From NCBI GenBank assembly GCA_030651765.1, contig JAUSBY010000015.1, forward strand, positions 74,043-138,042: a stretch of DNA of 64,000 bases, written 5' to 3'. Positions 3,048 to 19,009 of this stretch are shown one piece after another. The position numbers and the translations under genes are program-made. The notes beneath the pieces were generated by a model. That model was not told the origin of the DNA. It saw only the letters and a program-made list of their open reading frames with translations, and did no database searches. The stretch's first letter is position 1. Every line of letters starts with the position of its first letter. This DNA comes from Coriobacteriia bacterium. Its GTDB lineage: Bacteria > Actinomycetota > Coriobacteriia > Anaerosomatales > Anaerosomataceae.

Positions 3048-4217
3048 ATGTCCGAGCACGACGACCTTTCTTCCGACCTCGCCCGCCTTCGCGCGCTTTC
3101 CGGCGTTAAGTGGACGCGCTACCCGGCCGACGTCCTGCCGTGCTGGGTGGCCGACATGGACCTGCGCACGGCTCCGCCGGTGACGGACGCGCTGCGGGAT
3201 CTGATCGAGCGCGGCGACTTCGGCTACAACTTCCACGCGGCGGCGGCACTGCCCGAGTGCTTTGCAGACTGGACAGAAGCGCGTCACCACTGGCGGCCGG
3301 ACCCCGCGCACGTGCGCGTCTTCACCGACGTGCTGCAGGCGGTGCACCTCGCGCTGTGGCTCGGCACCGGGCCGGGTGACGGTGTGGTGCTCTTCACGCC
3401 GGTCTACCCGCCGTTCTTCCGCATGGTGACCGGAATTGGCCGACGCATCGTCGACTGTCCGCTCGACCCGGTCGGGTGGCGTCTCGAGCGCGACGCGCTC
3501 GACGAGGCGATCGAGCGCGCGGCCGCCGACGGGATCACCACCCGCGCGGTGCTCTTATGCAGTCCGCATAACCCCACCGGGCGCGTGTTCGGCCCGCACG
3601 AGATCGCCGCGGTGGCCGAGGTGGCGGCGCACCGCGATCTGCTGGTGATCAGCGACGAGATCTGGGCCGACGTGGTCTTCCCGGGGAAGCAGCACGTCCC
3701 GTTCCCGGCGTTTCCCGGCCTCAGGCCCGACCGGATCGTCACGGTCGCCGCGGCAAGCAAGGCCTTCAACCTCGCCGGTCTGCGCTGCGCGGTCGCCCAC
3801 ATCGGCGATGAGCGGCTCCGGGCGAAGATCGCCGAGCTGCCCGACCACCTGCTCGGCGCCGTGAGCACGCCGGGCGCGGTGGCAACGCGTGCCGCGTGGA
3901 CCGAGGGCGGGCCGTGGCTGGCCGAGACGGTCGCGTTCCTCGAGAGCCAGCGGGACCACCTGATCGAGCGCCTGAACGCCGAGCTTCCCGAGGTGCGCGT
4001 GCAGACACCCCAGGCGACCTACCTGGCGTGGCTCGACTTCCGTGCGCACGATCTCGGCGACGACCCGGCCGCCTGGCTGCTCGAGCACGCGAAGGTCGCG
4101 CTGGGCGCGGGGCCGGACTTCGGCGTGCACGGGGCCGGCTACGCCCGGCTCAACTTCGCCACCACTCGCGCGGTGCTCGACGAGGCGATCGATCGGATCG
4201 TTGCGGCGGTAGGGTAG
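3048..4217 (+). CDS. PatB/MalY-type class I/II aminotransferase (cystathionine beta-lyase-like, PLP-dependent)
   Basis: Start MSEHDD at 3048. Motifs VKWTRYPADVLPCWVADMD and the PLP-lysine context AASKAFNLAGLRCA are typical of the PatB/MalY family. Confidence 0.8.
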   Translation: MSEHDDLSSDLARLRALSGVKWTRYPADVLPCWVADMDLRTAPPVTDALRDLIERGDFGYNFHAAAALPECFADWTEARHHWRPDPAHVRVFTDVLQAVHLALWLGTGPGDGVVLFTPVYPPFFRMVTGIGRRIVDCPLDPVGWRLERDALDEAIERAAADGITTRAVLLCSPHNPTGRVFGPHEIAAVAEVAAHRDLLVISDEIWADVVFPGKQHVPFPAFPGLRPDRIVTVAAASKAFNLAGLRCAVAHIGDERLRAKIAELPDHLLGAVSTPGAVATRAAWTEGGPWLAETVAFLESQRDHLIERLNAELPEVRVQTPQATYLAWLDFRAHDLGDDPAAWLLEHAKVALGAGPDFGVHGAGYARLNFATTRAVLDEAIDRIVAAVG

Positions 4218-4246
4218 GCAGTCCGGGACGCGCTGCCGTCCTGCAG

Positions 4247-6652
4247 TCAGTAGGACAGGCGGATCACGGCACCCTGCTCGGTCACGAAGACACTCGGGAA
4301 GGTTCTGCTCGCTGGGATCAGCTCCCAGCCGTACGGGTAGCCCAGATTCTCCCAGTACTCGTAGTCGACGTGCACGTAGTAGGCTGTCGCGCGCACGGGG
4401 ACGACGATATCGTTCACGCCGCTCCAGCCGGCCCCTGTGTCGCTCCCTGTGGCCACGATGGTGCCGGTGGCGCCCCCGAGACGAACGGTCCAGCTCGCCC
4501 ATTCATCCTCGGCCGGACCGGGTTGTCCCTCGATGTCCGAGTCACCCCATACCAGCCTGATCGTCCCCGTCTGGCGGATGATCGTGAAGTTTGCGGTGTT
4601 GGGGCTCTCGACGTTGCCTGACCAGTCCTCGGACCAGAACGTGAGCGTGTGTGGAACCGCCCCGTCGAGGGCCGGTACGTTCACGATCGTGCCGGTCTGT
4701 GTGGGGCCGTCATCAAGCGAGTAGAAGGTAGCCTTCACACCATGCGTGCTCGCGTCGGTCGCCGTCAGGGTGATCGAGGCGTTGTACCAGTAGTAGGTTG
4801 TCTGAGCATTCGAGGTTGTGACTGGGGCGGTCACGTCCTCGACGATCGTGAAGTCAGCGGTGTTGTGTGTCGCCTCGGTGAGCCCGTTTTGATCGACCGA
4901 CCAGAACTCGATCGTATGCTCACCCGGCGCAACTATGAGTGCGGTCTTGCCCGTGAGCACCGCACCGCCATCCACGCGATAGTATGTCGTGCCGATCGCT
5001 GCCTTGCCGCCCTTAGTGATCGTGAACCGTATGAGAGCCGCGCCGTCGTAGGTCGCTCGCGCGTTCGACGATGTCACGGGCAGGGACGCACTGGCAGGGC
5101 TGGCGTGGCAGTTGAGGCAGTCCACGGGCCTCGGCCACCACGAGGACGGGTGGCACGCATCGCACCCCTCGTCGTATGCCTGCCAGTGCGTATCGAACGG
5201 CCCGTCGTGATAGGTCACGTGGCACTCACCCTGCTGGCAGCCACTGCCCCAGCCGGGCTCGAGCGTGTCGTACGGTGTCGCGTGGCATGCGACGCACTGG
5301 TCCGCGTGAACCGGCAACAGGTCCGTGACGTGGCATGTGGTGCACGGGGCATCGATGCCGTCTTCGGGGCCCGACACCCAGTCGTGCTTCTCGTCGAACA
5401 CCTGAACGTAGCCACTTCCCGGTGCTGCGTCATGGACGAGTGAGTGGCAGTTCAGGCACAGGCTGTTGGGCTCGGCGGACTCGGGAGTGCGCACGAGGAG
5501 GTTCGCGCGGTCACTCTCGTGCGGGAATGTCTGGAACTGCGGGTTGTCGGTGGGATCCGCGTCCGTCCCGTACGCGGTGACGCGGAACTCCTGATCGGCA
5601 TCGGTCAACGTAGGGTTGGTCTTCCGGGCCGACGGACCCACATCGCGTCCATCCTCATGACACTGCTGGCACAGCGGAGCTGCACCCTCCTGAAGTGGCG
5701 TCTTCAGGGTGGGTTCGCCAAGCGCCGGTCCGGGCATCACGTAGCCGCGGTTACTCTGACCGAGCGACCCGAGCTCGGTTGTGATGGAGCCGACGCCGGT
5801 CACGACGGGCAACTCCTCGTACGTGTAGGAGTCGTCGGCCATCACGGGGTGGTTCTGCATGGCCCCGGAGTCCTCGTCATGCTGGCCGAGTCGACCTTTG
5901 TGGCATCCGGCACACCAGCCCGCTCCATACTCGGCTACCGCCGAGTCGGCGCCGGTGGGCTGTGACCTGAGCAGACGGCTGGTCTTGGTGGCGTAGGCCG
6001 TCTCGCTTGCCGGCGCGCTTCGGAGCCGGTCTCCGGTGAACGGTTCCACCGTCTGCGAGTCGTGAGGTGAGTGGCAGTCGGTGCAGGTGAGCGTGTCGCC
6101 CGCGCCGGAGAAGGCAACGACGGCGGAGCCGCCGGCCGGGTCCCCGCCGGGCACGACGTTGGTCTGCCCCACGCGATGACCGGCGGTCGCGTCCACTCCC
6201 GTGCGGGCCTTGACCACGCCGTAGACGCCCGTCCCGCCGGTGCCGTCGTGGCACGACTCGCAGACGCCCTCGATCGTTTGGGCGGGGAGCAGCCTCGAAT
6301 CGGGTGCCGCGTGGATGTCGTGGCAGGTCTGGCACTTGCCGGTGGACGTCCGGTAGTTGCCGTGAGGTCCCTTGCGGATGTCGGCGAGCAAGGCGGGGTC
6401 GGTCCCGGGATCGAGAAGGTCGGCCTGCTCGTTGCCGTGGCAGTCGACGCAGCCGGCGCGCGCCAGACCATCGGGGTATGTGGCGTCGGGGTTGGGATAA
6501 GCAACCGCGGTCTGAGCGCCACAGAGAACGGCCAGGAAGCAGAGCACAAGCAGCGTGCCCCACGCGAGTATCCCGGGCCTGGCCTGGGTCAGGTTCACGG
6601 ACACGTGCCTCCGGCGGGTGCAGTTCGTGACCAAATAGCGAACAGAATGCAT
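4247..6652 (-). CDS. secreted multiheme c-type cytochrome (11 CxxCH plus 1 Cx4CH) with C-terminal Ig-like beta repeats
   Basis: Heme motifs: CVDCH, CQTCH, CESCH, CTDCH, CAGCH, CQQCH, CLNCH, CTTCH, CVACH, CQQGECH, CDACH, CLNCH. Hydrophobic signal-like segment ILAWGTLLVLCFLAVLCGAQTAVA. The C-terminus has repeated T/Y-rich beta modules. The start is uncertain: ATG at 6652, or in-frame GTGs near 6601 just ahead of the signal-like segment. Confidence 0.85.
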   Translation of the reverse strand: MHSVRYLVTNCTRRRHVSVNLTQARPGILAWGTLLVLCFLAVLCGAQTAVAYPNPDATYPDGLARAGCVDCHGNEQADLLDPGTDPALLADIRKGPHGNYRTSTGKCQTCHDIHAAPDSRLLPAQTIEGVCESCHDGTGGTGVYGVVKARTGVDATAGHRVGQTNVVPGGDPAGGSAVVAFSGAGDTLTCTDCHSPHDSQTVEPFTGDRLRSAPASETAYATKTSRLLRSQPTGADSAVAEYGAGWCAGCHKGRLGQHDEDSGAMQNHPVMADDSYTYEELPVVTGVGSITTELGSLGQSNRGYVMPGPALGEPTLKTPLQEGAAPLCQQCHEDGRDVGPSARKTNPTLTDADQEFRVTAYGTDADPTDNPQFQTFPHESDRANLLVRTPESAEPNSLCLNCHSLVHDAAPGSGYVQVFDEKHDWVSGPEDGIDAPCTTCHVTDLLPVHADQCVACHATPYDTLEPGWGSGCQQGECHVTYHDGPFDTHWQAYDEGCDACHPSSWWPRPVDCLNCHASPASASLPVTSSNARATYDGAALIRFTITKGGKAAIGTTYYRVDGGAVLTGKTALIVAPGEHTIEFWSVDQNGLTEATHNTADFTIVEDVTAPVTTSNAQTTYYWYNASITLTATDASTHGVKATFYSLDDGPTQTGTIVNVPALDGAVPHTLTFWSEDWSGNVESPNTANFTIIRQTGTIRLVWGDSDIEGQPGPAEDEWASWTVRLGGATGTIVATGSDTGAGWSGVNDIVVPVRATAYYVHVDYEYWENLGYPYGWELIPASRTFPSVFVTEQGAVIRLSY

Positions 6653-6765
6653 AAGAGTATGCCATATTCCGCAAGTTTCGTGCCGCTCGGGACGGCGCGG
6701 GGCTGCCGGCATCGACCCGGAGGAGTAGTCTTCTTCGCGAGGGCTGACCGGCCAGCGGGGTACTG

Positions 6766-7161
6766 CTAGCGGCCCCGCAGGTACTCGGCGGGGGGCAGCA
6801 CACGGACGCCACTCACAGTGGTGCCGAGGCACGGGCCGAAGTGCGTAAGGTCGCCCGTAAGGAGCACGTCGGCCCCGCTCACGATCGCGGCGAGGAGCAC
6901 CGGGCGGTCATTGGGCGGGAGGCCGGGGTCGTCTTCTATGCGGAAGTCGGCGGGCTCGGCGGGCAGCGCCACGAGCGCGGCGATGAGCGTCTCGAGGCGC
7001 TCGGCCGCATCAGGTGCAGGCACGTTGCGGCGTGCCTCGGCCAGCACGTGCGGAGAGGCGAGCAGTCGCACGCCCGGCAGCGTCCAGAGCGACGCGATTC
7101 GCGACGCGGGCTTGAGCGCGGCCGAGACGAGCACGTTGGCGTCAAGGAAGACCCGCTCCAC
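6766..7161 (-). CDS. PIN-domain toxin (PIN_3/VapC-like)
   Basis: VFLDANVLVSAAL ... ADVLLTGDLTHFG acidic PIN signature. The GTG start lies 3 nt after the stop of the upstream antitoxin. Confidence 0.8.
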   Translation of the reverse strand: MERVFLDANVLVSAALKPASRIASLWTLPGVRLLASPHVLAEARRNVPAPDAAERLETLIAALVALPAEPADFRIEDDPGLPPNDRPVLLAAIVSGADVLLTGDLTHFGPCLGTTVSGVRVLPPAEYLRGR

Positions 7162-7164
7162 CGC

Positions 7165-7455
7165 CTACTCCGGGCGCTTCTGGTGGGGAACCGTGTCGGG
7201 GTCGATACCGAGGGCGCGGACCTCGGCCAGCGCCTCGTCGAACTCGGCGCCCGTGACCGCGTTGTTGAGCAGGAACTCGGCCTGTCGCTCGGGCGTGTAG
7301 ACCTCCACCTCGTAGGCGCGGACCGGCTTGAGGAGTAGGCCGGCGGCCGACTCCTCCATCACGAGCATCTCGCCCTCTTCCAGCCCGTAGCGCCGCCGCG
7401 CGCCGGCCGGGATCACCACCGTGCCACGCTTGCCGATGCGGATGTAGTCGGCCAT
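7165..7455 (-). CDS. AbrB/SpoVT-fold antitoxin
   Basis: MADYIRIGKRGTVVIPAGARRRYGLEEGEMLVMEE is a swapped-hairpin AbrB-type motif. The gene sits immediately upstream of the PIN gene. Confidence 0.75.
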   Translation of the reverse strand: MADYIRIGKRGTVVIPAGARRRYGLEEGEMLVMEESAAGLLLKPVRAYEVEVYTPERQAEFLLNNAVTGAEFDEALAEVRALGIDPDTVPHQKRPE

Positions 7456-7574
7456 GAGCACCCACCTCTCGAGGTTGTGTTCAGTATAGCGGAATGTCTG
7501 ACATTCAGATAGCAACCACCAGCTGTCAGCACGCGTAAGGGCGCCTCTGGAGCACTACCGAAGGCAATGGCCCG

Positions 7575-7910
7575 TCACGAACCCGCGGACGTGGCAGTGT
7601 GCGATGCGATGACCCGGCCTACGTCGGCCGGTGTCGCGCCGAGGGTGAGCAGTGCCTTCACGAGAAGGTCCAGCGAGACCGTCGCATCAGCCGCCTCCAA
7701 CTTCGCCACGCGTGACTGGCTGGAGCCGAGCCTCATGGCCGTCTCGGTCTGCGTCAGGCCACTCTGGGTGCGCAGGCCGCGTGCGTATCGGGCCAGAGCA
7801 ACCTTCATCTCGACGAAAGCAGTCTCCTCGGGGGTGAGGTCGAGGAAGTCCGCGGCGCTGCCTACCTTCCAGCCTGCCGAGTCAAGACGTGCTCGTTTCC
7901 TCGGATCCAT
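7575..7910 (-). CDS. XRE-family HTH antitoxin (HigA-like)
   Basis: GLTQTETAMRLGSSQSRVAKLE helix-turn-helix. The ATG lies 2 nt after the stop of the upstream toxin-like ORF. Confidence 0.75.
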   Translation of the reverse strand: MDPRKRARLDSAGWKVGSAADFLDLTPEETAFVEMKVALARYARGLRTQSGLTQTETAMRLGSSQSRVAKLEAADATVSLDLLVKALLTLGATPADVGRVIASHTATSAGS

Positions 7911-7912
7911 CG

Positions 7913-8143
7913 TTAGTCCTCCCGTCGCGAGGCGGCATCGTACCTGCTGAGCCGCCGCTTACACTCGTTGATGACCGCAGGCGGCGTGGCGCGCGTCGTC
8001 TTGCGAAATACCGCCGCGATGACGATCGCGAGCACTTCGCCGTCCTGCAGATACCGCAGCAGTACGCCCGCCTTGACACGCGCAGCGCGTGAGAAAGGCG
8101 GTGTTGCGATCTCATCACGGAGCCATACGAGCGGCTTCGTCAC
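7913..8143 (-). CDS. RelE/Gp49 (DUF891)-like toxin, abnormally short, possible remnant
   Basis: The N-terminus (TKPLVWLRDEI..FSRAARVKAGVLLRYLQDGE) and C-terminus (AVFRKTTRATPPAVINECKRRL) resemble Gp49-type RelE toxins. About 35 central residues appear to be missing (76 aa total). Confidence 0.55.
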   Translation of the reverse strand: MTKPLVWLRDEIATPPFSRAARVKAGVLLRYLQDGEVLAIVIAAVFRKTTRATPPAVINECKRRLSRYDAASRRED

Positions 8144-8243
8144 CCTGCGTCACCCCCAAGGATATGTCAGAAGCGACATACGCGCAAGTCCACTGAGAAC
8201 CCCGGGCTGGGGCTGGCGGGCGATGCGGACTTCGGTCCGTGAA

Positions 8244-8640
8244 CCGTCGGGGAGGCGGAGCGCGAGCTTCCGCGCGGTTCGGCCCGGCGAGCCGTTCTTC
8301 TTCCGCCTCAAGTCGCCGCACAACGCGATCGCGGGCTTTGGGTACTTCGCAGGCTTCAGCGCGCTGTCGGCGTGGCTCGCATGGGAGAGCAACGGGTCCC
8401 AAGAACGGCGCCGCCGACTTCGACGAGATGCGCGCGCGCATCGAGCGCTACCGCCGACGCAACAGCACGCCGGTCTCCCAGCGTCCGGGCGACTACTCGA
8501 TCGGCTGCATCATGGTGGCGAGCCCGGTGTTCTTCCCCGAGGAGCTGTGGGCGCGCGAGCCGAAGGGCTGGGCGCCCAACATCGTGCGCGGACGCGGTGA
8601 GGACCTCACGCAGGCCGAGGGGCTGCGTCCGAGCAGGGAG
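8244..8640 (+). pseudogene. decayed copy A of the HNH endonuclease gene at 13372-14307 (5' end missing, 1-nt frameshift, nuclease domain deleted)
   Basis: Near-identical nucleotides to 13459-13820. The peptide PGEPFFFRLKSPHNAIAGFGYFAGFSAL is split over two frames by an extra nt in gagagcaacgggtccc versus gagagcttcgggccc. It then jumps to gcgtccgagcaggga, which in the intact gene lies at ~14252. Confidence 0.8.
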
Positions 8641-8729
8641 CGGATTGCCGAGGCTACAGTGATCGCACGAACTGTCCGATTCAACTAGGAAGCTGCAGCA
8701 CGCAACTCCTCAGATGAACGGCGGTGGTC

Positions 8730-9239
8730 ATGGCGCGGCGCAATGATGGCTTCTTGGATCTAGTCGTGGAACTCCCGTGGTGGGTCGGTGTCATCGTCGC
8801 CGGCCTCGCCTATGCAGTCATGCGGTACATGATTCCGAGCATCGTTAGTGACAGTCCCTTCACGGCGGCGCTGGGCCAGGTGAGCTACGGCCTCGCCCCG
8901 TACGGAGCAGGGCTGACCCTTCTTGCGGCAGGTGTTTCGGCGATTCGCTCGTTACTCGAGTATCTGCGCGGACATCGGCAGCACACAGCCTCGCCGAGAA
9001 TCGACCCTCCGCCCAGCAGGGGACCGCGCCCCGTCGTCCAGCGGCCCGCCCCGCGCGCTAGCACCCAGTCCGGCGGTCCGGTCGAGCGTCGACCAGTGAC
9101 CGTTGCATCCCGTCCTTGCCCGCGCTGCGGTGGCGCGCTGGTCATGCGCCGCGCGTCGCGCGGGGCGCATGCCGGCTCGAGCTTCTGGGGTTGCTCCAGC
9201 TATCCGAAGTGTCGCCACACAGAAGACGTCACGGCGTGA
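8730..9239 (+). CDS. membrane protein with C-terminal topoisomerase-type C4 zinc finger
   Basis: Two hydrophobic helices (WWVGVIVAGLAYAV; YGLAPYGAGLTLLAAGV), a Pro/Arg linker, then CPRCGGALVMR...FWGCSSYPKCRH (zf-C4_Topoisom pattern). Alternative GTG start at 8724. Confidence 0.7.
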   Translation: MARRNDGFLDLVVELPWWVGVIVAGLAYAVMRYMIPSIVSDSPFTAALGQVSYGLAPYGAGLTLLAAGVSAIRSLLEYLRGHRQHTASPRIDPPPSRGPRPVVQRPAPRASTQSGGPVERRPVTVASRPCPRCGGALVMRRASRGAHAGSSFWGCSSYPKCRHTEDVTA

Positions 9240-9267
9240 GGCAGCCCATGGGCGCTGATCGCAGTCA

Positions 9268-12183
9268 ATGACTCCTCCTAGCGTTTCACGGGGCATTGCC
9301 TCGCGTATCCTCTACGGCGCCGCCTCTGCCGAGGTGTCCGACGACGGCCTTCTCATTTCCAGTAGGGGCGACAGGGAGTCGTTCGCCCTGGGCGAGTTGA
9401 ATGGACTACTCGCCCGCGAGGACGGCCTGATCTGGTCTACGATGCGGGTACCGACGGCCCGCGGAGAGCGCAGCCTGCGCGGACTGTCGAAGCAGCAGGT
9501 GGAACCGCTTATCGCCGCTGCCAATGCCGCTGTGGCCGAAGACGCCGCCAGCCGCTACGCGCATCTTGAGCCCATACTCAGTGCTCTCGTCACCCGCCTC
9601 GACGCGCTGGATGCTCGCTCGCGCTACATCCGCCACTCAGAGGCTAAGGCGCTGCTCGATGAGATCCGCTCAGCGCTCACGATCCGCTCAGACTCCCTCT
9701 GGCGTCAGTACGCTCCGCTGTCGCAGAAGGTGAAGATCGGGCGTTTGACGCTGCTCGCTGAATCCGAGGGTGGGATCGAGGGATGGATCGAGTCGGTCAG
9801 GTCGGCCTTCGTCGAACACGAGCTGGCTGAGCACGCCGCCTTCTTCGACAGCGTCGAGAGCAAGCCGCTCACCGAGGCACAGCGCCGGGCCTGCGTGATC
9901 GCCGAGGACAACAACCTTGTCCTTGCCGGCGCTGGCACCGGCAAGACCAGCGTCATGATCGGCCGCGCAGGGTATCTCATCTCGTCCGGCCGGGCGAAGC
10001 CGGACGAGATCCTCATGCTGGCATTCGGTCGCAAGGCGGCTCAGGAGATGCAGGGGCGACAGGACTCGCGGCTCGAGGCCTGGCTCACTGCCGGCACGCC
10101 GACGATCAAGACGTTCCACGCGCTCGGCCTCGAGATCATCGGGAAGGTGGAGGGCAGGCGCCCGGACATCACGGTCATGGCCGAAGACCAGCTGCGGTTC
10201 ACGACCTTCGTCGATGAGACGATAGCCTCGCAGTGCGAGGAGGATGAGTATCGGCAGCGACTGATCCGCTACTGCGGCACCGAGCGCTTCCCATACCGAA
10301 ACTGGTTCGACTTCACGACCGAGGCCGAGTACCTCGAGTACGTGCGGGTGAATGAGCTCCGCACGCTCAAGGGCGAGATCGTGAAGAGCTTCGAGGAGAT
10401 GTTCATCGCCAACTACCTCGCGAGCCAGGGTGTGACTTACGAGTACGAGCGCCCGTATGAGGTGGACACCGCCGGCGCGACCTATCGTCAGTACCGCCCA
10501 GACTTCTACCTGCCCGAGCACGGCGTCTACATCGAGCACTTCGCGCTCGACCGCAGTGGTGACCCGCCGCGGTACTTCGACCGTGCCCGGTACGTAGAAG
10601 GGGTTGCGTGGAAGCGGAAGCTTCATGCCGAGCACGGGACACGCCTGATCGAGACGTACTCGTACCTGAAGCGTGAGGATCTGCTGGAGACGACGCTCGA
10701 GGCGGCCCTGGCAGAGGCCGGTGTGACCTTCGATCCACAGCCCACCGAACAGTTGCTTGCGCAGTTGCGGGAGACATCGCAGGTTACGGACTTTGCAGCG
10801 CTGGTTGCGGACTTCATCGGGCTCATGAAGCAGTCCGGCCATACAATCCCCGAACTTCGCACCAAGGCTGTCGCGAACCTGGACGCGTCGCGCATCAATC
10901 TGCTGCTCGATCTGATTGCGCCCGTCTACCTGACCTATGAGGCGACGCTTGCCGAGCGTGGCGAAATCGACTTCGCAGACATGATCTCGCGCGCGACCGA
11001 GCATGTTGAGAGCGGCCGCTATCGGTCACCGTACACCCAGATCATGGTCGACGAGTTCCAGGACATCAGCCCTGCCCGGGCCCGGCTCATACAAGCGCTA
11101 CTGCGTCAGCGGCCCGAGGCGATGCTCTTCGCAGTTGGGGATGACTGGCAATCGATCTACCGCTTCACCGGGAGCGATCTGCGGTACACCACGCGCTTCT
11201 CTGAGATCTTCGGCGCCACCGCCGCAACGGCCCTCGATCTCACATTCCGTTTCAACGACAAGCTCGGTGATGCGGCTTCGAAGTTCGTGCTCAAGAACCC
11301 CGAGCAGGTCCGCAAGGAACTCGCGTCGATGCGCGCTCAGGATGAGCCGGCCGTCTCAATCGTCCCCGCGGCCGCCTTGCGTGTGGGGCTCGATGCGGTC
11401 CTTGAGGCGATACGCCTTCGGGCCGACGGACGGGGCGGGTCTCGGTCCACCGTGCTCGTTCTGGGGCGATTCACGTTCACGTACAGCGAGATCGCGAGTG
11501 CGGAGTACAGGGAGCAGTTGCGTCGGCTACATCCCGCCCTCGACGTGGAGTTCATGACTGCGCACGCGGCCAAGGGCAAGGAGGCCGACTACGTGGTCGT
11601 CTTGGATGTCTCCCAAGGCCGCTACGGATTTCCGAGTGAGCGGCCGGCCGAGCCTGCGCTGGAGTTCCTCTTGCCCGAGGCGGAGCCATTCCGCTTCGCC
11701 GAGGAGCGGCGGCTGTTCTATGTGGCGCTCACACGCGCGCGACACCGCACGTACGTTGTCTGCGACCCTGCGAAGCCATCGACGTTCGTAACCGAACTGC
11801 TGGCCGAAGATGACCCGTACCCGGTGTGCACTGATGAGTGCGGGACTCTCGCATCCGCGCTGACAGCGCAACTGCCCTGCCCTCGATGCCACTCAGGCCG
11901 CCTCGTGGTCCGTGCCGGTCCCTACGGCAGCTTCGTGGGGTGCAGCCACTACCCGTACTGTACGCATCAGGCGCCGGCGTGCCCGGCATGCGGTGGAGTC
12001 ATGCGGCGTACTGGCGAGAGGCGGGTCTGCGTGGACCCTGCGTGTGGCCACAGCGTGCGACTCTGCCCGCGATGCGGTGGTGACCTCGTAGTGCGCAAGG
12101 GGCCGTACGGCCAGTTCATCGGGTGCAGCAACTACGGCAAGGGTGCCTTCTCATGCGGGCACAAGGAGAAGGTAGAGGGGTAG
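9268..12183 (+). CDS. helD: DNA helicase IV (HelD)-like UvrD-family helicase with internal PD-(D/E)xK-like insert and three C-terminal topoisomerase-type zinc fingers
   Basis: FFDSVESKPLTEAQRRACV..NLVLAGAGTGKTSVMIGRAGYL, MVDEFQDISPARARL, LFAVGDDWQSIYRF, FMTAHAAKGKEADYVVVL and EERRLFYVALTRARHR are colinear with E. coli HelD as I remember it. Insert: YEYERPY..YRPDFYLPEHGVYIEHF. Tail: CPRCHSG..GCSHYPYC, CPACGG.., CPRCGG..GCSNYG. Confidence 0.85.
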   Translation: MTPPSVSRGIASRILYGAASAEVSDDGLLISSRGDRESFALGELNGLLAREDGLIWSTMRVPTARGERSLRGLSKQQVEPLIAAANAAVAEDAASRYAHLEPILSALVTRLDALDARSRYIRHSEAKALLDEIRSALTIRSDSLWRQYAPLSQKVKIGRLTLLAESEGGIEGWIESVRSAFVEHELAEHAAFFDSVESKPLTEAQRRACVIAEDNNLVLAGAGTGKTSVMIGRAGYLISSGRAKPDEILMLAFGRKAAQEMQGRQDSRLEAWLTAGTPTIKTFHALGLEIIGKVEGRRPDITVMAEDQLRFTTFVDETIASQCEEDEYRQRLIRYCGTERFPYRNWFDFTTEAEYLEYVRVNELRTLKGEIVKSFEEMFIANYLASQGVTYEYERPYEVDTAGATYRQYRPDFYLPEHGVYIEHFALDRSGDPPRYFDRARYVEGVAWKRKLHAEHGTRLIETYSYLKREDLLETTLEAALAEAGVTFDPQPTEQLLAQLRETSQVTDFAALVADFIGLMKQSGHTIPELRTKAVANLDASRINLLLDLIAPVYLTYEATLAERGEIDFADMISRATEHVESGRYRSPYTQIMVDEFQDISPARARLIQALLRQRPEAMLFAVGDDWQSIYRFTGSDLRYTTRFSEIFGATAATALDLTFRFNDKLGDAASKFVLKNPEQVRKELASMRAQDEPAVSIVPAAALRVGLDAVLEAIRLRADGRGGSRSTVLVLGRFTFTYSEIASAEYREQLRRLHPALDVEFMTAHAAKGKEADYVVVLDVSQGRYGFPSERPAEPALEFLLPEAEPFRFAEERRLFYVALTRARHRTYVVCDPAKPSTFVTELLAEDDPYPVCTDECGTLASALTAQLPCPRCHSGRLVVRAGPYGSFVGCSHYPYCTHQAPACPACGGVMRRTGERRVCVDPACGHSVRLCPRCGGDLVVRKGPYGQFIGCSNYGKGAFSCGHKEKVEG

Positions 12184-12204
12184 GGTTGAAGTCGGAGTCG
12201 CGGT

Positions 12205-12468
12205 GCGGACCCCGCGCCCCTTCTTCTTCCGCCCCAAGTCGCCGCACAACGCGATCGCGGGCCTTGGGTACTTCGCGAGCTTCAGCGCGCTGCCGGCGTG
12301 GCTCGCGTGGGAGAGCTTCGGACCCAAGAACGGCGCCGCCGACTTCGACGAGATGCGCGCGCATCGAGCGCTACCGCCGTCGCAACGGCGCGCCAGTCTC
12401 CGAGCGCCCGAGCGACTACTCCATCGGCTGCATCATGGCGGCGAGCCCGGTTGTTCTTCCCCGAGGGG
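12205..12468 (+). pseudogene. decayed copy B of the HNH endonuclease gene (internal fragment, frameshifted)
   Basis: Starts directly after the helD stop. PFFFRPKSPHNAIAGLGYFASFSALPAWLAWESFGPKNGAADFDEMRA is then out of frame (2-nt deletion in gatgcgcgcgcatcgag versus gatgcgcgcccgcatcgag, 1-nt insertion in cccggttgttcttcc). Homology ends near ttccccgagg. Confidence 0.8.
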
Positions 12469-12505
12469 TTGGGCCTCGTCTGCACGTGACCCCGAGCTCT
12501 CACCG

Positions 12506-13145
12506 CTACCACTCGCGCGGCTTGCGAACCACGCGAATCCCGAGATGCACAGTCTCCGGCAGCTGCGACCTCTGGAGCACCGAGGCGTTGACGTGTCGCA
12601 TGATGCCGTCTACGCGACCCTGGAAGACGGAACCGCGACGCAGCCGCCCGGTGAACACGATGTGCACCTTCTTGCCGAGCTCTTCCCGGACCATCCTCAC
12701 CGGTTCGAGCAGATCGGAGTCATTGGACGACCACTGCGACATCGTAGCGATCGCGGAATCCGTCCAGAAGGAGATGAGACGCCAGGTTGACGTCCGAGCC
12801 CTTCTCCTTGGTGTCGATGATGGCGACCGTGTCGGGCGGGACGCGTGCACTGTCCGCGAGAGGGCGTCTGACGACGTTGGAGCGGAACTCACCGAGGTGT
12901 ACCGACACATCAGGCAGGGACTTGAGGGCCTCAAGATACGTGCCTTGCCGGTAGTGTCCGGTTGCGTCCCACGGAAGCGGCTTCAGGCGTGCCGTGAAGT
13001 ATCTGATCAGCACAATGTCGTACGCAGGCAGCAGCGTCTTCGCGAAGGCAGAGAGGTCGAGCCAGCGATGCGGCGTGTTGCGCAGCAGCCCGTAGTACAG
13101 GTTGAATCCGTCAATGTAGACGATGGCGATTGGCCGCGGTGTCAT
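12506..13145 (-). pseudogene. NYN/LabA-like (PIN-related) ribonuclease-domain gene with a single frameshift
   Basis: The N-terminal part (IAIVYIDGFNLYYG ... EKGSDVNLASHLL ... YDVAVVVQ*) stops at 12720-12722. The continuation SNDSDLLEPVRMVREELGKKVHIVF...SQLPETV reads in the next frame. The junction gtggtcgtccaatgactcc is consistent with a 1-nt loss. Confidence 0.75.
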
Positions 13146-13371
13146 GCCGAGTGTCCCCCGAAATGCGGAGGCCGCCTTGCGGCGGCCCTCGCGCCCTGGA
13201 TCGCAACCCAGGGGTGGTAAACCGATTCTGCCGAGCGATGCAGGACCTGTCAACAGGCTCGCAGGAGCATCATGGCACGCCGACCTCAACCGGATGCCAC
13301 CCGGATCCAAACCGCATCACACCCCTGCGCTACACTCCCCGTAGGGCTCCAATCGCCGGGGGGATCCGCCC

Positions 13372-14307
13372 ATGCGCGGCTACATCGGGAACACCGACTA
13401 CGACTGGTACCGCTTCTTGGCCTCGCAGCCCGGCATCGACGAGGTGAACTTCTGGCAGCCGTCGGCAAGCGCGAGCTTCAGCGCGCTGCGGCCCGGCGAG
13501 CCATTCTTCTTCCGCCTCAAGTCGCCGCACAACGCGATCGCCGGCTTCGGGTACTTCGCGAGCTTCAGCGCGCTGCCGGCGTGGCTCGCATGGGAGAGCT
13601 TCGGGCCCAAGAACGGCGCCGCCGATTTCGACGAGATGCGCGCCCGCATCGAGCGCTACCGCCGTCGCAACGGCGCGCCTGCCTCCCAGCGTCCGGGCGA
13701 CTACTCGATCGGCTGCATCATGGTGGCGAGCCCGGTGTTCTTCCCCGAGGAGCTGTGGGTTCGCGAGCCGAAGGGCTGGGCCCCCAACATCGTGCGCGGT
13801 CGCGGTGAGGATCTCACGACCGGCGAGGGCCTGCGCATCTTCACCGAGAGCCTCGACCGCGCGCAGCACCTGGGCGCGCCGGTGTTGGCCGCCGAGCCGG
13901 GCGCGCCCCGCTACGGTGAGCCGACGCTCGTGGCGCCGCGGCTCGGGCAGGGTATCTTCCGCGTGTCGGTTCTCGACGCGTACGACCGCGCGTGCGCGGT
14001 CACGGGCGAGCACTCGCTGCCGGTGCTCGAGGCGGCGCACATCATGCCGTACGCGTCCGGCGGCACGCACCAGGTCACCAACGGGTTGCTGCTCCGAAGC
14101 GACATCCACCGCCTGTTCGACCTGGGCTACGTGACGGTCACGCCCGAGTATCGCTTCCAGATCTCAGATGCGCTGGCCGAGGACTTCCACAACGGTCGGA
14201 CGTACTACGCCGAGCGGGGGAAGCGAGTGATCCTGCCGAAGGCGGAGGAGATGCGTCCGAGCAGGGACCTGCTCGCGTGGCATGGAGAGAGTGTGTGGCG
14301 GGGGTGA
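13372..14307 (+). CDS. HNH endonuclease (HNH_2 type) with ~170-aa N-terminal putative DNA-reader domain; candidate restriction nuclease
   Basis: C-terminal CAVTGEHSLPVLEAAHIMPY....NGLLLRSDIHRLFDLGYVTV is the HNH_2 pattern found in COG3440-like predicted restriction endonucleases. Only this copy is intact. Confidence 0.85.
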   Translation: MRGYIGNTDYDWYRFLASQPGIDEVNFWQPSASASFSALRPGEPFFFRLKSPHNAIAGFGYFASFSALPAWLAWESFGPKNGAADFDEMRARIERYRRRNGAPASQRPGDYSIGCIMVASPVFFPEELWVREPKGWAPNIVRGRGEDLTTGEGLRIFTESLDRAQHLGAPVLAAEPGAPRYGEPTLVAPRLGQGIFRVSVLDAYDRACAVTGEHSLPVLEAAHIMPYASGGTHQVTNGLLLRSDIHRLFDLGYVTVTPEYRFQISDALAEDFHNGRTYYAERGKRVILPKAEEMRPSRDLLAWHGESVWRG

Positions 14308-15890: not shown

Positions 15891-17137
15891 TGCCGAAGAT
15901 GCTCTACAACTGCCACGGTTCCTGGAGTTGTCGAGGGATTGAGGCGGCGGATGGTCGAATCATCCACGCCGCCGGCTTCGCTGAGAAGCGAGACTGCACT
16001 GGAGCGGCATCTGAAGGATTCGGTATCGTCGACTGCGATCCTCTGGTGTGGAATCTGCCGTATGACCCCCACGCAACTGTCTGCAACAAGATTGCTACGC
16101 ATGCGTTTCTTCCGATTGCCACGCCCCGCTTTGAAGATTGGCACGGCAAGGAGAGCGAGTGGATCGCCGCGGCAATCGCCCCGGTGGTATCAGCGGATTG
16201 GCCTCCTCCCTTGCCTTCAACTACTGGAGACATCGAGGGATTCATCGTCGACTGCCTGACCTGGCAAGGTCGCCTGCAGCCCACGTTGCTGACTGTTCCG
16301 ACGCCCCCGCTTGCGGGAGCGACGCCGGACTTGGATGCATTCCTCAAATGGCTACGCGCAGGTACACGTGCGGCTTCATACCTGCAGCCGAGCGAGACCA
16401 CGCTATTGTCCGTCACGGTAGAGGAAGGACTGCTCTCGACAGTAGGGGACGTCCTTCTTGACCAGATCACCGCCAGAGAGGGAATCGACGGGGTCTACTT
16501 GAACGTTGTCACGCACAAGACCGAGTTGGGCGAGCGGATCACTCAGGATGTGGCGACTTCACTTGTGCGGTTCGTTCGCGACCTCGCGCCTCACAGGCGC
16601 GTCTTCGTGAATGGCGTCGATCTCTTCGGATTGGTGCTACTCGGGGCCGGCGCGGAAGGAATCGGAATCGGCTATGAGCTTAAGGGGATGCGCCTGAACA
16701 CCAACGACTTCAAAGACACCAACAGTCGAGGAGCGTTTCCAAGAATGCTGTCGCTGGCGCTGTGCAAGAGGTTGGCCTTGGCAGAAATCGAGGTGCTTCG
16801 CAACGTTGGCTTGTTGGATCGTCTCGAGTCGGACCGTACCGATTCAAGCTCTGTACTCCTTGACGCTATACGTGACCGTCGGGACCTACGCACGATTATT
16901 CCGTGGCGACCCACTAAGGGGACTGTGGGTGAGGCACGGCGCCACTACATTCTTCGGCATGAAGGGGTCAAGCGCGAGTTGGATCCCATGAGCCAACGGG
17001 AGCGCTGGGAGTGGGTCGCGGGCTGGCTAGATACCTGCGACGCAAACATCAGCGACTTCTGTCAAGCGACTGGCAAGCGCCCGCAACAGGTGGGGGCGGG
17101 TCACGTGTCCGCTTGGCGTGAAGCAGTGTCTAAGTAG
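15890..17137 (+). CDS. hypothetical 415-aa protein with no recognisable motif
   Basis: The ATG overlaps the kinase stop (TGATG). Composition is coding-like and the ORF is long in a lower-G+C stretch. I recognised no motif. Confidence 0.65.
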   Translation: MPKMLYNCHGSWSCRGIEAADGRIIHAAGFAEKRDCTGAASEGFGIVDCDPLVWNLPYDPHATVCNKIATHAFLPIATPRFEDWHGKESEWIAAAIAPVVSADWPPPLPSTTGDIEGFIVDCLTWQGRLQPTLLTVPTPPLAGATPDLDAFLKWLRAGTRAASYLQPSETTLLSVTVEEGLLSTVGDVLLDQITAREGIDGVYLNVVTHKTELGERITQDVATSLVRFVRDLAPHRRVFVNGVDLFGLVLLGAGAEGIGIGYELKGMRLNTNDFKDTNSRGAFPRMLSLALCKRLALAEIEVLRNVGLLDRLESDRTDSSSVLLDAIRDRRDLRTIIPWRPTKGTVGEARRHYILRHEGVKRELDPMSQRERWEWVAGWLDTCDANISDFCQATGKRPQQVGAGHVSAWREAVSK

Positions 17138-17230
17138 ACCAGTAGTGGCTGTATTGGACGATTCCGCGCATCGCAGATAAAGTCGTTCAAGTTGGGAGGG
17201 AGTCCGGGCGATTGATTCACGGCTGACTCT

Positions 17231-19009
17231 ATGCGGCCGGTAGTGACGACGGTTAGTCTACACGTCCTTGGATGCTTCGTATCGATGTCTACTATCGCAT
17301 TGCGCGGTGAGGTAGAAGAGGAATCCCCGGACGCCCTTCCACTCCGCGACGCCTTTCTTGCGATTCTCGATCTTGAGGACCTTGCATCCTTCTTCGGTAC
17401 GGCGTACGAGGACTTGGGCCGCCTCATCTACGGCTACAAGCCGCAGTACAAGTATCGGACGTTCCTGATTCCGAAGAAGCGCAGCGGTTATCGAAAGATA
17501 TCGACCCCGTGCAAGAGCCTGAGACGCATTCAGAATCGGCTGAAGGCCGCCTTGGACGAGGTCTATCGGCCAAAGGCCTCAGTACACGGTTTCGTGAACG
17601 ACAGGAGCATCGTCACTAACGCGGACGCCCACCTCCGCAAACGGTACGTGTTCAACCTGGATCTGAGGGACTTCTATGGCTCGATCCACTTCGGCCGGGT
17701 GCGCAACCTGTTCATGAAGGATCCGTTCTCCTTCTCGTACGAGGTAGCGACCGTTGTCGCGCAAATCTGCTGCTTCGAAGGGTCTTTGCCTGCCGGGGCT
17801 CCGACTTCGCCTGTTGTCTCCAACATGATCGCCAGGAAGCTTGACTCCCGCTTGCAGACGATGGCCCGCAGGCGAAATTGCACCTACAGCAGGTACGCCG
17901 ACGACATCACCTTCTCATTTGACAAGCCGAGACTGCCCCATGACCTGGTCGATACTTCGGGCATGCACGCCCAGCCGGGCGCGGCGCTGCTGCAGGCAAT
18001 TGAGGACAACGGCTTCGAGGTGAATTATGAGAAGGTGCGATTGACCGGCCGATCTCAGCGGATGGAAGTCACCGGCCTGACGGTAAACGAGGCCGTGAAC
18101 GTTCGACGCCAATACGTTCGAGAACTGTCGTCAATGCTGCATGCATGGGAGAAGTTCGGTCTCGACAAGGCACAGGAGACCTTCCACTCAAGATTCGCGA
18201 AGCCTCACAGCGCTAGCGGTCAGCCCAAGTCTCTCGCTCATGTCGTGCACGGTAAGCTGGCGTTCTTGAAGAGTGTTAGGGGCGGGGACGATCCTCTGTA
18301 TAACCGGCTCGCCAGTAGGTTCAACAAGCTGGTGGGCGACAGCGCACTCGCATTGAATGTCGTCTCAATCTATGGTGCCGAGGAGTCATTGTGGATCGTG
18401 CACGCTAATGATCCGAAGGATACGAAGGAGCTTGAGCACCAAGGCAGCGGCTTCTCGTTGAGAGGAGTCGGCATTGTTACTTGTTGGCATGCCGTGAGTG
18501 AGCCGGTCTCACCGAAGTCCAGGTCGAGAAGACTGCTACCCATCGTCGAGGTATCAGGCTGGGATCGTCCGCTACCACGAACTCGTGCCAAGGTTGTCTT
18601 TCACGACGAAGACAGGGACCTGGCGATCTTACAGCGAGTAGGCGTTGACGAGGCCAAGACCACCCCCGCGCTCGTGATGTCAGAGCGTGACATCGCACAT
18701 CGACTACCACTCCACCTGCTTGGCTTTCCGGGCTGGCATGTTGGCGAAAGCTATAGCGACAAAGCGGTCAGGATATCGGCCTTGCGTACGGATCACGGTG
18801 TGCAGAAGTTCAACATTGACCAGCGGATTGACCATGGCAATAGTGGCGGCCCTCTCGTTGACGTAGAAGGCAAGGTGGCCGGAGTCGCCGTTGAACGCTC
18901 GTGGGATGGAGTCGGTAAGGACGGCGCTATTCACTACCTGGAATTGGAAGTAGTAGTCGAGGCATATCTTGACGACTTGGCATCAGGCAACGACCTGGCT
19001 GGGGCATAG
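17231..19009 (+). CDS. retron-type reverse transcriptase fused to a C-terminal trypsin-like (S1/Trypsin_2) serine protease
   Basis: RT motifs: NADAH (NAxxH), FNLDLRDFYGSI, SPVVSN, YSRYADDITFSF (YADD at 17894-17905), MEVTGLTVN (VTG). Protease triad: TCWHAV (His 18488-18490), DRDLAIL (Asp 18617-18619), GNSGGPLVD (Ser 18842-18844). Alternative ATG at 17285. Confidence 0.85.
   Translation: MRPVVTTVSLHVLGCFVSMSTIALRGEVEEESPDALPLRDAFLAILDLEDLASFFGTAYEDLGRLIYGYKPQYKYRTFLIPKKRSGYRKISTPCKSLRRIQNRLKAALDEVYRPKASVHGFVNDRSIVTNADAHLRKRYVFNLDLRDFYGSIHFGRVRNLFMKDPFSFSYEVATVVAQICCFEGSLPAGAPTSPVVSNMIARKLDSRLQTMARRRNCTYSRYADDITFSFDKPRLPHDLVDTSGMHAQPGAALLQAIEDNGFEVNYEKVRLTGRSQRMEVTGLTVNEAVNVRRQYVRELSSMLHAWEKFGLDKAQETFHSRFAKPHSASGQPKSLAHVVHGKLAFLKSVRGGDDPLYNRLASRFNKLVGDSALALNVVSIYGAEESLWIVHANDPKDTKELEHQGSGFSLRGVGIVTCWHAVSEPVSPKSRSRRLLPIVEVSGWDRPLPRTRAKVVFHDEDRDLAILQRVGVDEAKTTPALVMSERDIAHRLPLHLLGFPGWHVGESYSDKAVRISALRTDHGVQKFNIDQRIDHGNSGGPLVDVEGKVAGVAVERSWDGVGKDGAIHYLELEVVVEAYLDDLASGNDLAGA

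Follow-up and report, generated by a model that had tools for sequence, protein, structure and literature searches.

Defense-island hotspots consist of conserved flanking genes around defense content that varies. Insertion of restriction(-modification) genes with long target duplication was reportedly recognized by Nobusato in 2000. In such insertions, restriction genes enter with target duplications of 30 to 420 bp and without mobility genes, and examples are known for type I to type IV systems, one actinobacterium included (Furuta, Abe and Kobayashi 2010, PMC2853133). A second process, sequential displacement through homology-facilitated illegitimate recombination, was proposed for the effector-immunity arrays of type VI secretion systems (T6SS) and for Rhs loci, where orphan fragments remain (PMC5361080). 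Fusion of a PUA-superfamily reader to an HNH nuclease is, in turn, the layout known from modification-dependent restriction enzymes of type IV (PMC7897488, PMC6765204). Here we analyze a window of 64,000 nucleotides from a Coriobacteriia bacterium (assembly GCA_030651765.1, contig JAUSBY010000015.1, positions 74,043 to 138,042; coordinates below count from its first nucleotide), which contains three copies of one HNH nuclease gene, one intact (copy C) and two broken (copies A and B), within a defense island. With moderate confidence, we read the locus as holding one live and two dead copies of a type IV-like restriction gene that is a long-term resident of the island, the dead copies being relics of segmental displacement. 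The genome is a metagenome-assembled genome (MAG)-type assembly of 15 contigs, and the relatives are likewise MAGs. The comparison set comprised 146 genomes of the order together with metagenome contigs, and 80 distant loci served for repeat statistics; the sister genome of the same genus is G001 (locus L028), G011 belongs to another genus (L036), and G018 contributes loci L031 (contig C42) and L120 (contig C1).

Exactly three stretches of the gene are present in the window; they share the plus strand and lie no more than 6 kb apart, and a search of the whole genome found no further copy. Copy C (13372 to 14307) is an open frame of 311 amino acids encoding an HNH nuclease. Copy A (8259 to 8639) corresponds to codons 33 to 155 of C, with positions 8259 to 8627 identical to C 13468 to 13835 at 342 of 367 nucleotides (93.2%) and a 1-nucleotide insertion at 8397. 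Its last 12 nucleotides (8628 to 8639) equal C 14256 to 14267, and the 420 nucleotides between (C 13836 to 14255) are missing; this deletion is in frame, has its junction in a TGCG microhomology, and takes away the entire HNH domain. The 16-mer at the junction, TGCGTCCGAGCAGGGA, is found in the window at 8624 and 14252 only. The first ~30 codons are unrecognizable in A. A weak collinear stretch running upstream of 8259 to ~8221, with a possible ATG>ATA start, was considered as a decayed 5' end and discarded, its alignment scoring no better than shuffled sequences (p=0.57); alignment of decayed HNH sequence past the right ends of A and B was also not significant. Seeming small indels at 8610 to 8615 are a substitution cluster private to C, and A has the G001 allele there.

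Copy B (12199 to 12471, plus strand) corresponds to codons ~38 to 128 of C and starts 15 nucleotides past the stop codon (12181 to 12183) of a helicase gene. Positions 12199 to 12466 (extending to 12471) match C 13482 to 13750 (to 13755) at 248 of 266 nucleotides (93.2%), with a 2-nucleotide deletion after 12359 and a 1-nucleotide insertion at 12451, and B carries a private 8-nucleotide block, CGCGCCCC, in common with the G001 allele only. Identity between A and B is 91.6%, and their overlap of ~270 nucleotides forms direct repeats (well over 30 bp long) that bracket 8640 to 12198, an interval occupied by a membrane zinc-finger protein gene and the helicase gene. The intact gene also contains an exact 20-nucleotide direct repeat, CGCGAGCTTCAGCGCGCTGC (13470 to 13489 and 13557 to 13576), which includes the palindrome CAGCGCGCTG, and it is within the first copy of this repeat that B begins on its left side. 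The original prediction, made by a model from the letters of the window, had described three same-strand copies with more than 90% identity, the insertion and HNH-removing deletion in A together with a junction recurring at ~14252, the -2 and +1 frameshifts in B directly after the helicase stop, and the two genes between A and B, and each of these descriptions holds. It had placed A at 8244 to 8640, and the relic is indeed there, but clear homology begins at 8259 rather than at 8244.

Private substitutions fall at codon positions 1, 2 and 3 in the numbers 5, 2 and 1 in A and 3, 2 and 1 in B, such that 12 of the 14 lie at position 1 or 2. The intact alleles of C, G001 and G011, by contrast, differ from each other at 30 sites, 22 of them at position 3 (Fisher p=3.4e-4). 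This excess indicates that the relics have drifted without coding constraint; with both also frameshifted and without recognizable starts, A and B are dead. Changes private to C are rarely present in the relics (2 of 13 in A, 1 of 4 in B), so neither is a recent duplicate of C. In a tree of A, B, C and their orthologues, A, B, C, G001 and G011 fall into a shallow, star-like, weakly supported group with no exclusive clade of A, B and C, and the tree does not discriminate between import and duplication. C and the HNH gene of G011 are 91% identical at the nucleotide level, compared with 73% for the helicase genes of the same two genomes, which suggests that the HNH gene has been exchanged horizontally between genera.

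The protein encoded by C matches Pfam HNH_2 (8.7e-13, residues 208 to 256), NCBIfam PT-DNA_restrict (phosphorothioated DNA-binding restriction endonuclease) over its C-terminal part only, and the HNH half of VcaM4I (PDB 6yex). The catalytic residues H223, N237 and H246 are invariant in 46 orthologues, and an AlphaFold model built with these orthologues (mean predicted confidence, pLDDT, 89) retrieves VcaM4I (4.3e-10), ZmASCH (7e-5), AF2351 (1.6e-4) and TagI (1.6e-4) with Foldseek, as well as EcoKMcrA and ScoMcrA. From these domain, sequence and fold matches, the product of C is predicted to join a PUA/ASCH-like reader to an HNH nuclease, with the architecture of VcaM4I and TagI, and it is thus a candidate modification-dependent (type IV) restriction endonuclease. 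A and B keep parts of the reader domain only. Full-length orthologues with 45 to 60% identity are spread across many phyla, and in many distant phyla the HNH gene stands in tandem with one or two genes whose HNH domains are ~30% identical and whose N-terminal parts differ (L043, L046, L049, L050, L053, L059, L062, L065, L068, L071, L076, L082, L088, L093, L101 and L110); they resemble arrays of type IV-like nucleases that have swapped their readers.

Comparison with the sister genome delimits the rearranged segment. G001 aligns with window positions 3240 to 7509 and 12496 to 13381 at 94 to 96.5%; the homology stops at 7509, by the start of an AbrB gene, and restarts exactly at the stop codon of an NYN-domain gene (12496). 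Between these ends, G001 has 1.6 kb with a gene of 345 codons and a GIY-YIG gene, and the window has 5.0 kb (7510 to 12495) with a HigA-like pair, A, the zinc-finger protein gene, the helicase gene and B. The order in G001 is VapBC-[345 aa]-[GIY-YIG]-NYN-HNH with a single HNH copy; no counterpart of HigBA, of the zinc-finger protein or of the helicase was found there, nor of A or B. At the right-hand junction, B and everything left of it are joined to the NYN stop codon through 24 nucleotides of filler (12472 to 12495), which have no similarity to the G001 spacer or to C; the left limit is the AbrB start. Because the 345-aa gene is also present in G009, and the GIY-YIG-NYN arrangement in G021 and G018, the G001 layout looks ancestral: G021 shares with G001 the order GIY-YIG, NYN (minus strand), HNH (plus strand) with an intact HNH gene, and G018 keeps GIY-YIG and NYN with HNH fragments nearby.

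The NYN gene itself is a pseudogene (12496 to 13310, minus strand; PADLOC HEC-09 candidate, 1.1e-27) with a probable true start at the ATG at 13145. Its region (12496 to 13381) is 96.5% identical to that of G001, relative to which it has lost 2 nucleotides near 12728 and has gained, close to its end, a premature stop by a TAC>TAG change; the G001 orthologue is intact, with 270 amino acids and a Pfam NYN match of 2.7e-9. As NYN and HNH form a conserved divergent pair in relatives, NYN and C are, to judge from this pairing, a resident module and not cargo. The original prediction of a frameshifted gene between B and C is thus borne out, and its treatment of that gene as dropped-in cargo is not. 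Decay is reciprocal within the genus, with NYN broken and HNH intact in the window and NYN intact in G001 (L028, 10421 to 11233), where the HNH gene has lost codons 4 to ~40.

These arrangements are best accommodated by segmental displacement, in which a 5.0-kb foreign or rearranged block (7510 to 12495) would have replaced the 1.6 kb still kept in the sister genome. Incoming island DNA from a related strain would pair through a conserved stretch, for which the left-hand VapBC pair and the HNH gene are the two candidates, and the other end would be joined illegitimately at the NYN stop, as in homology-facilitated illegitimate recombination. In this way an older HNH copy would be severed and persist as a fragment where a clean replacement would have removed it, with B cut short at codon 128. 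The arrangement of A, cargo and B inside the block may then go back to something that happened earlier in the donor lineage, either another displacement or a long-target-duplication insertion. With function lost, A and B would drift neutrally, gaining frameshifts and deletions. Homology-anchored illegitimate recombination is the probable origin of the relics; the mechanism, its direction (gain in the window genome) and the order of events are what we infer from the layouts. One replacement of a 5-kb block relative to G001 fits at least as well as three separate insertions; the original prediction had read the pattern as repeated cassette insertion or recombination, with a partial copy left each time. 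Neither an empty site nor an intermediate was found among the relatives, and the proposal that each event leaves a partial copy would have to be deduced from the present arrangement.

Several observations weigh against segmental displacement. No donor or intermediate layout was found in the comparison set, whether a helicase beside a fuller B or an intact A beside the HigA-like pair, and no HNH relics were found beside the helicase cassette in G011, G036 or G086; in G011 (L036), the cassette lies 6.5 kb upstream of the HNH gene. Third-position divergence is 5 to 14% in the flanks and 16% between C and G001, and the split of A, B and C is about as old as the G000-G001 split, which leaves room for an old in-place duplication later lost from G001. 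The private 8-nucleotide block common to B and G001 is at the same 5' edge in both, on opposite sides of NYN (B to its left, the G001 gene to its right), and no single displacement event explains it. The G+C content of the block (61 to 69%) hardly differs from that of the flanks, a contrast too small to inform on foreign origin. Finally, among the 80 distant loci, repeats touch the HNH gene in 11 of 148 pairs, compared with its 5.3% of bases, with no excess.

The island is nonetheless recombination-prone and carries HNH relics, although how many events they stand for is uncertain. Across genera, the island again contains the HNH gene, with ~20 genomes of the order carrying an orthologue and several having broken or multiple copies, and direct-orientation partial copies lie beside different cargo in G013, G018, G054 and the metagenome contig L122. 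In G054, on a single contig, one copy has both its ends but an internal deletion; 4 kb of cargo (an AAA_15/AAA_21/DUF3696 ATPase gene and three open reading frames [ORFs]) come next, and then a 5'-truncated copy. Three HNH pieces in G018 surround genes for AbiEii, an XRE-family protein and a MazF-like protein, the XRE-family and MazF-like genes being named from sequence only. The G018 contigs C42 (L031) and C1 (L120) overlap by 127 identical bases, and are thus adjacent; two HNH-domain fragments there begin at gene nucleotide ~548, each right after the stop of another upstream gene. G013 and L122 have one relic in common, with the same left junction and different right ends. Independent inactivating deletions are present in G013, G015 and G001, one of them at an 11-nucleotide intragenic repeat. 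The hotspot that the original prediction placed inside a defense island is thus sustained as a variable island with recurrent HNH relics by different cargo, and the count of events stays uncertain. An apparent break of A and the first G054 copy (G054_a) at the same nucleotide (gene nucleotide 896) was rejected, as the tail of G054_a runs to ~911 and probably on to the gene end. The G002 locus was set aside as a comparison because its contig is too short and differently arranged, and no same-species metagenome contig was found closer than 85%.

In-place tandem duplication, in which the HNH gene was doubled twice in this lineage by unequal crossing-over, the copies decayed, and unrelated cargo was inserted later with no foreign alleles, is an explanation that we consider unlikely. 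It agrees with all copies being on the same strand within 6 kb, and with A, B, C, G001 and G011 forming one shallow, star-like allele group. The G018 layout (3' piece, XRE-family gene, MazF-like gene, promoter and 5' piece) also resembles a decayed tandem duplication, and duplication of an NYN-HNH unit would explain a G001-type 5' lesion to the left of NYN. Yet the split is as old as the species split, given the small share of C-private changes in A (2/13) and B (1/4), and G001 has no trace of an extra copy. More events are needed as well (cargo would have to enter precisely where the relics end, the GIY-YIG and 345-aa genes would have to be lost, and C would have to be repaired), and the 24-nucleotide filler at the B/NYN junction mismatches the spacer expected from such a duplication.

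A more doubtful alternative is targeted insertion, with defense cassettes entering the HNH gene at a preferred site near nucleotides 108 to 123 (codons 37 to 41) and the A and B repeats deriving from one event. Four edges fall within ~15 nucleotides of each other: on their left sides B begins at 108 to 111 and the second G054 copy (G054_b) at ~115, and on their right sides the 5' deletion of G001 ends at ~113 to 120 and a 5' relic of L096 at 123. The cluster is suggestive, but it was spotted post hoc, and B and G001 may represent one event in view of their common 8-nucleotide block. Other edges are scattered (nucleotides 33, 42, 60, 75, 80, 202, 285, 302, 336, 384, 548 and 807), and the shared break of A and G054_a did not hold. 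The 10-nucleotide palindrome CAGCGCGCTG is at nucleotides 107 to 116, inside the exact 20-nucleotide intragenic repeat, and direct repeats of ~270 nucleotides bracket cargo without a mobility gene, as in the insertions described previously (PMC2853133), but no empty target site with the same flanks was found. Short 5' relics with cargo do occur in the distant genomes L057, L096, L097, L186 and L191; against this, the 80 distant loci have no enrichment of repeats at the HNH gene. A general hotspot in distant phyla was rejected, since the repeat rate equals the expectation from gene length and only scattered short 5' relics are present. A broader version, in which the PUA-HNH gene is a landing pad whose preferred site (the palindrome in the 20-nucleotide repeat) repeatedly captures defense cassettes with long target duplication and without a recombinase, in Actinobacteria and possibly in other phyla, we regard as more doubtful again, and nuclease-linked DNA breaks might drive such capture. 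If the breakpoint cluster at nucleotides 108 to 123 were real, it would point to a recombinase-free route of defense-gene capture.

The L096 locus on an Aminicenantes chromosome (OY970261.1) has a nested array at 4333 to 10933, with gene names taken from sequence and no domain search. It starts with a Fic-like gene and a promoter with HNH nucleotides 1 to 123, continues with genes for HicB-like, XRE-family and 394-aa proteins, and ends with HNH nucleotides 1 to 33, a second Fic-like gene and an intact HNH gene.

It is very improbable that the contig is a chimera of metagenome strain variants joined through their common HNH sequence. The assemblies of this genome (15 contigs) and its relatives are of MAG type, but the copies differ by 7 to 8% with private indels in each, and the relic edges abut nonhomologous DNA (the helicase stop plus 15 nucleotides on one side; the 24-nucleotide filler and NYN stop on the other), whereas a k-mer join inside the repeat would yield a continuous hybrid gene. 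Furthermore, a like arrangement is present in the single contig of G054, and one relic is present in two independent assemblies (G013 and L122). That the truncated copies still have a function, whether as proteins made of the reader domain alone or as RNAs that regulate the intact gene, is hardly credible. Both keep most of the PUA-like reader region, and B, which lies in the helicase operon's 3' untranslated region and faces the convergent NYN gene, could conceivably give an antisense RNA to the HNH mRNA; but both are frameshifted without recognizable starts, their private substitutions lack coding constraint, and the relics in relatives differ in extent.

The surrounding genes place these events within a variable defense island, with a VapBC pair on one side and a DUF2075-MazG pair on the other. 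The VapBC-like pair (6766 to 7515, minus strand; PIN, 6766 to 7161; AbrB/SpoVT, 7165 to 7515) is the conserved left border, by tblastn and blastn synteny with G001, G009, G015 and L123. The first genes of the 5-kb block missing in G001 are a HigA-like helix-turn-helix gene (7575 to 7910; Pfam HTH_31/HTH_3/HTH_37) and a 76-aa ORF upstream of it (7913 to 8143), together spanning 7575 to 8143 on the minus strand; the ORF has no family match in domain searches, and the pair was not found at any relative's locus examined. The first cargo gene (8724 to 9239, plus strand) encodes a membrane protein that ends in a topoisomerase-type C4 zinc ribbon at its C terminus (Pfam Zn_ribbon_Top1, 8.8e-11). The second (9268 to 12183, plus strand) encodes a helicase IV/UvrD-family helicase with C-terminal zinc ribbons (Pfam UvrD-helicase, 9e-45; Helicase_IV_N; Zn_ribbon_Top1), which scores 515.7 bits against the NCBIfam DNA helicase IV model, under its cut-off of 543, and has PADLOC matches to GajB-like helicases. 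This cassette occurs in only 4 of the 146 genomes of the order and is missing in G001, so it is accessory. Pfam, NCBIfam and PADLOC scans of the ORFs between 7.5 and 17 kb in the window gave no integrase, transposase or recombinase match, and those of the two cargo genes and their neighbors gave no mobile-element family.

To the right of C, the window holds a kinase operon and a type XI retron. In G001, the ~8 kb from the HNH gene to DUF2075-MazG (L028, 1428 to 9356) has seven other main ORFs (298, 159, 685, 207, 201, 550 and 478 amino acids), which occupy the place of the kinase operon and retron; both sides of the HNH gene are thus variable within one genus. The G011 island (L036) has two ORFs that look DUF262 (GmrSD)-like from a motif recognized by eye (5931 to 8495 and 16151 to 18307), and methylase-like ORFs also lie around its HNH gene.

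The region is a readable record of defense-island turnover in an uncultured actinobacterial lineage, in which a resident type IV-like restriction gene has been repeatedly broken, duplicated or overwritten. Accessory cassettes (the helicase IV-like pair, AbiEii, AAA ATPases and toxin-antitoxin pairs) come and go alongside the HNH gene, and the relics provide datable markers of these turnover events. Because the relics are direct repeats, cassettes between them are likely to be prone to loop-out loss. The process itself is a known kind of genome turnover, and the locus adds an example to displacement arrays and long-target-duplication insertions.

As for the nuclease, C resembles VcaM4I (EVE-HNH) and TagI in combining an N-terminal PUA-like fold with a C-terminal HNH_2-type nuclease and in having no adjacent methyltransferase, and these two are its best fold and sequence matches. 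It differs in its identity to them, only ~16%, and in having a reader nearer to ASCH than to EVE by Foldseek. As for the locus, two programmed or element-borne systems were considered and rejected. A shufflon or phase-variable locus does not fit with copies that are direct, frameshifted and unconstrained, with no recombinase family nearby, and an integrative element with att-site duplication does not fit with relics that are internal to the gene (codons 33 to 155 and 38 to 128) rather than gene ends, with no integrase.

Insertion with long target duplication is similar in having defense genes between long direct repeats without an integrase or transposase. Here, however, a restriction gene serves as the duplicated target instead of being inserted, the repeats have decayed and differ by 8%, and no empty site, a single uninterrupted target at that position without the insert, was found among the 146 genomes of the order or the metagenome contigs. 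G001 lacks the insert but also lacks an HNH copy there, its one copy being beyond NYN, and so does not represent such a site. The Rhs and Vibrio T6SS arrays are alike in having one intact gene and same-strand partial copies with different neighbor genes between, an arrangement seen here and in G054, G018, G013 and L122, and also in lacking mobility genes, in being hotspots of conflict systems, and in a proposed exchange anchored in a conserved stretch. In those arrays the orphans are 3' ends downstream of the live gene, whereas the relics here are upstream and keep the middle or 5' part; the neighbors are unrelated defense or toxin-antitoxin genes and not cognate immunity genes, and the relics are clearly dead. 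In both cases, the mechanism is a proposal. The locus is also like other defense-island hotspots in its conserved borders, VapBC and DUF2075-MazG, around defense content that differs even within a genus, but in contrast to hotspots with flanking core genes only, a resident restriction gene inside the island seems to be the recurrent break or anchor point.

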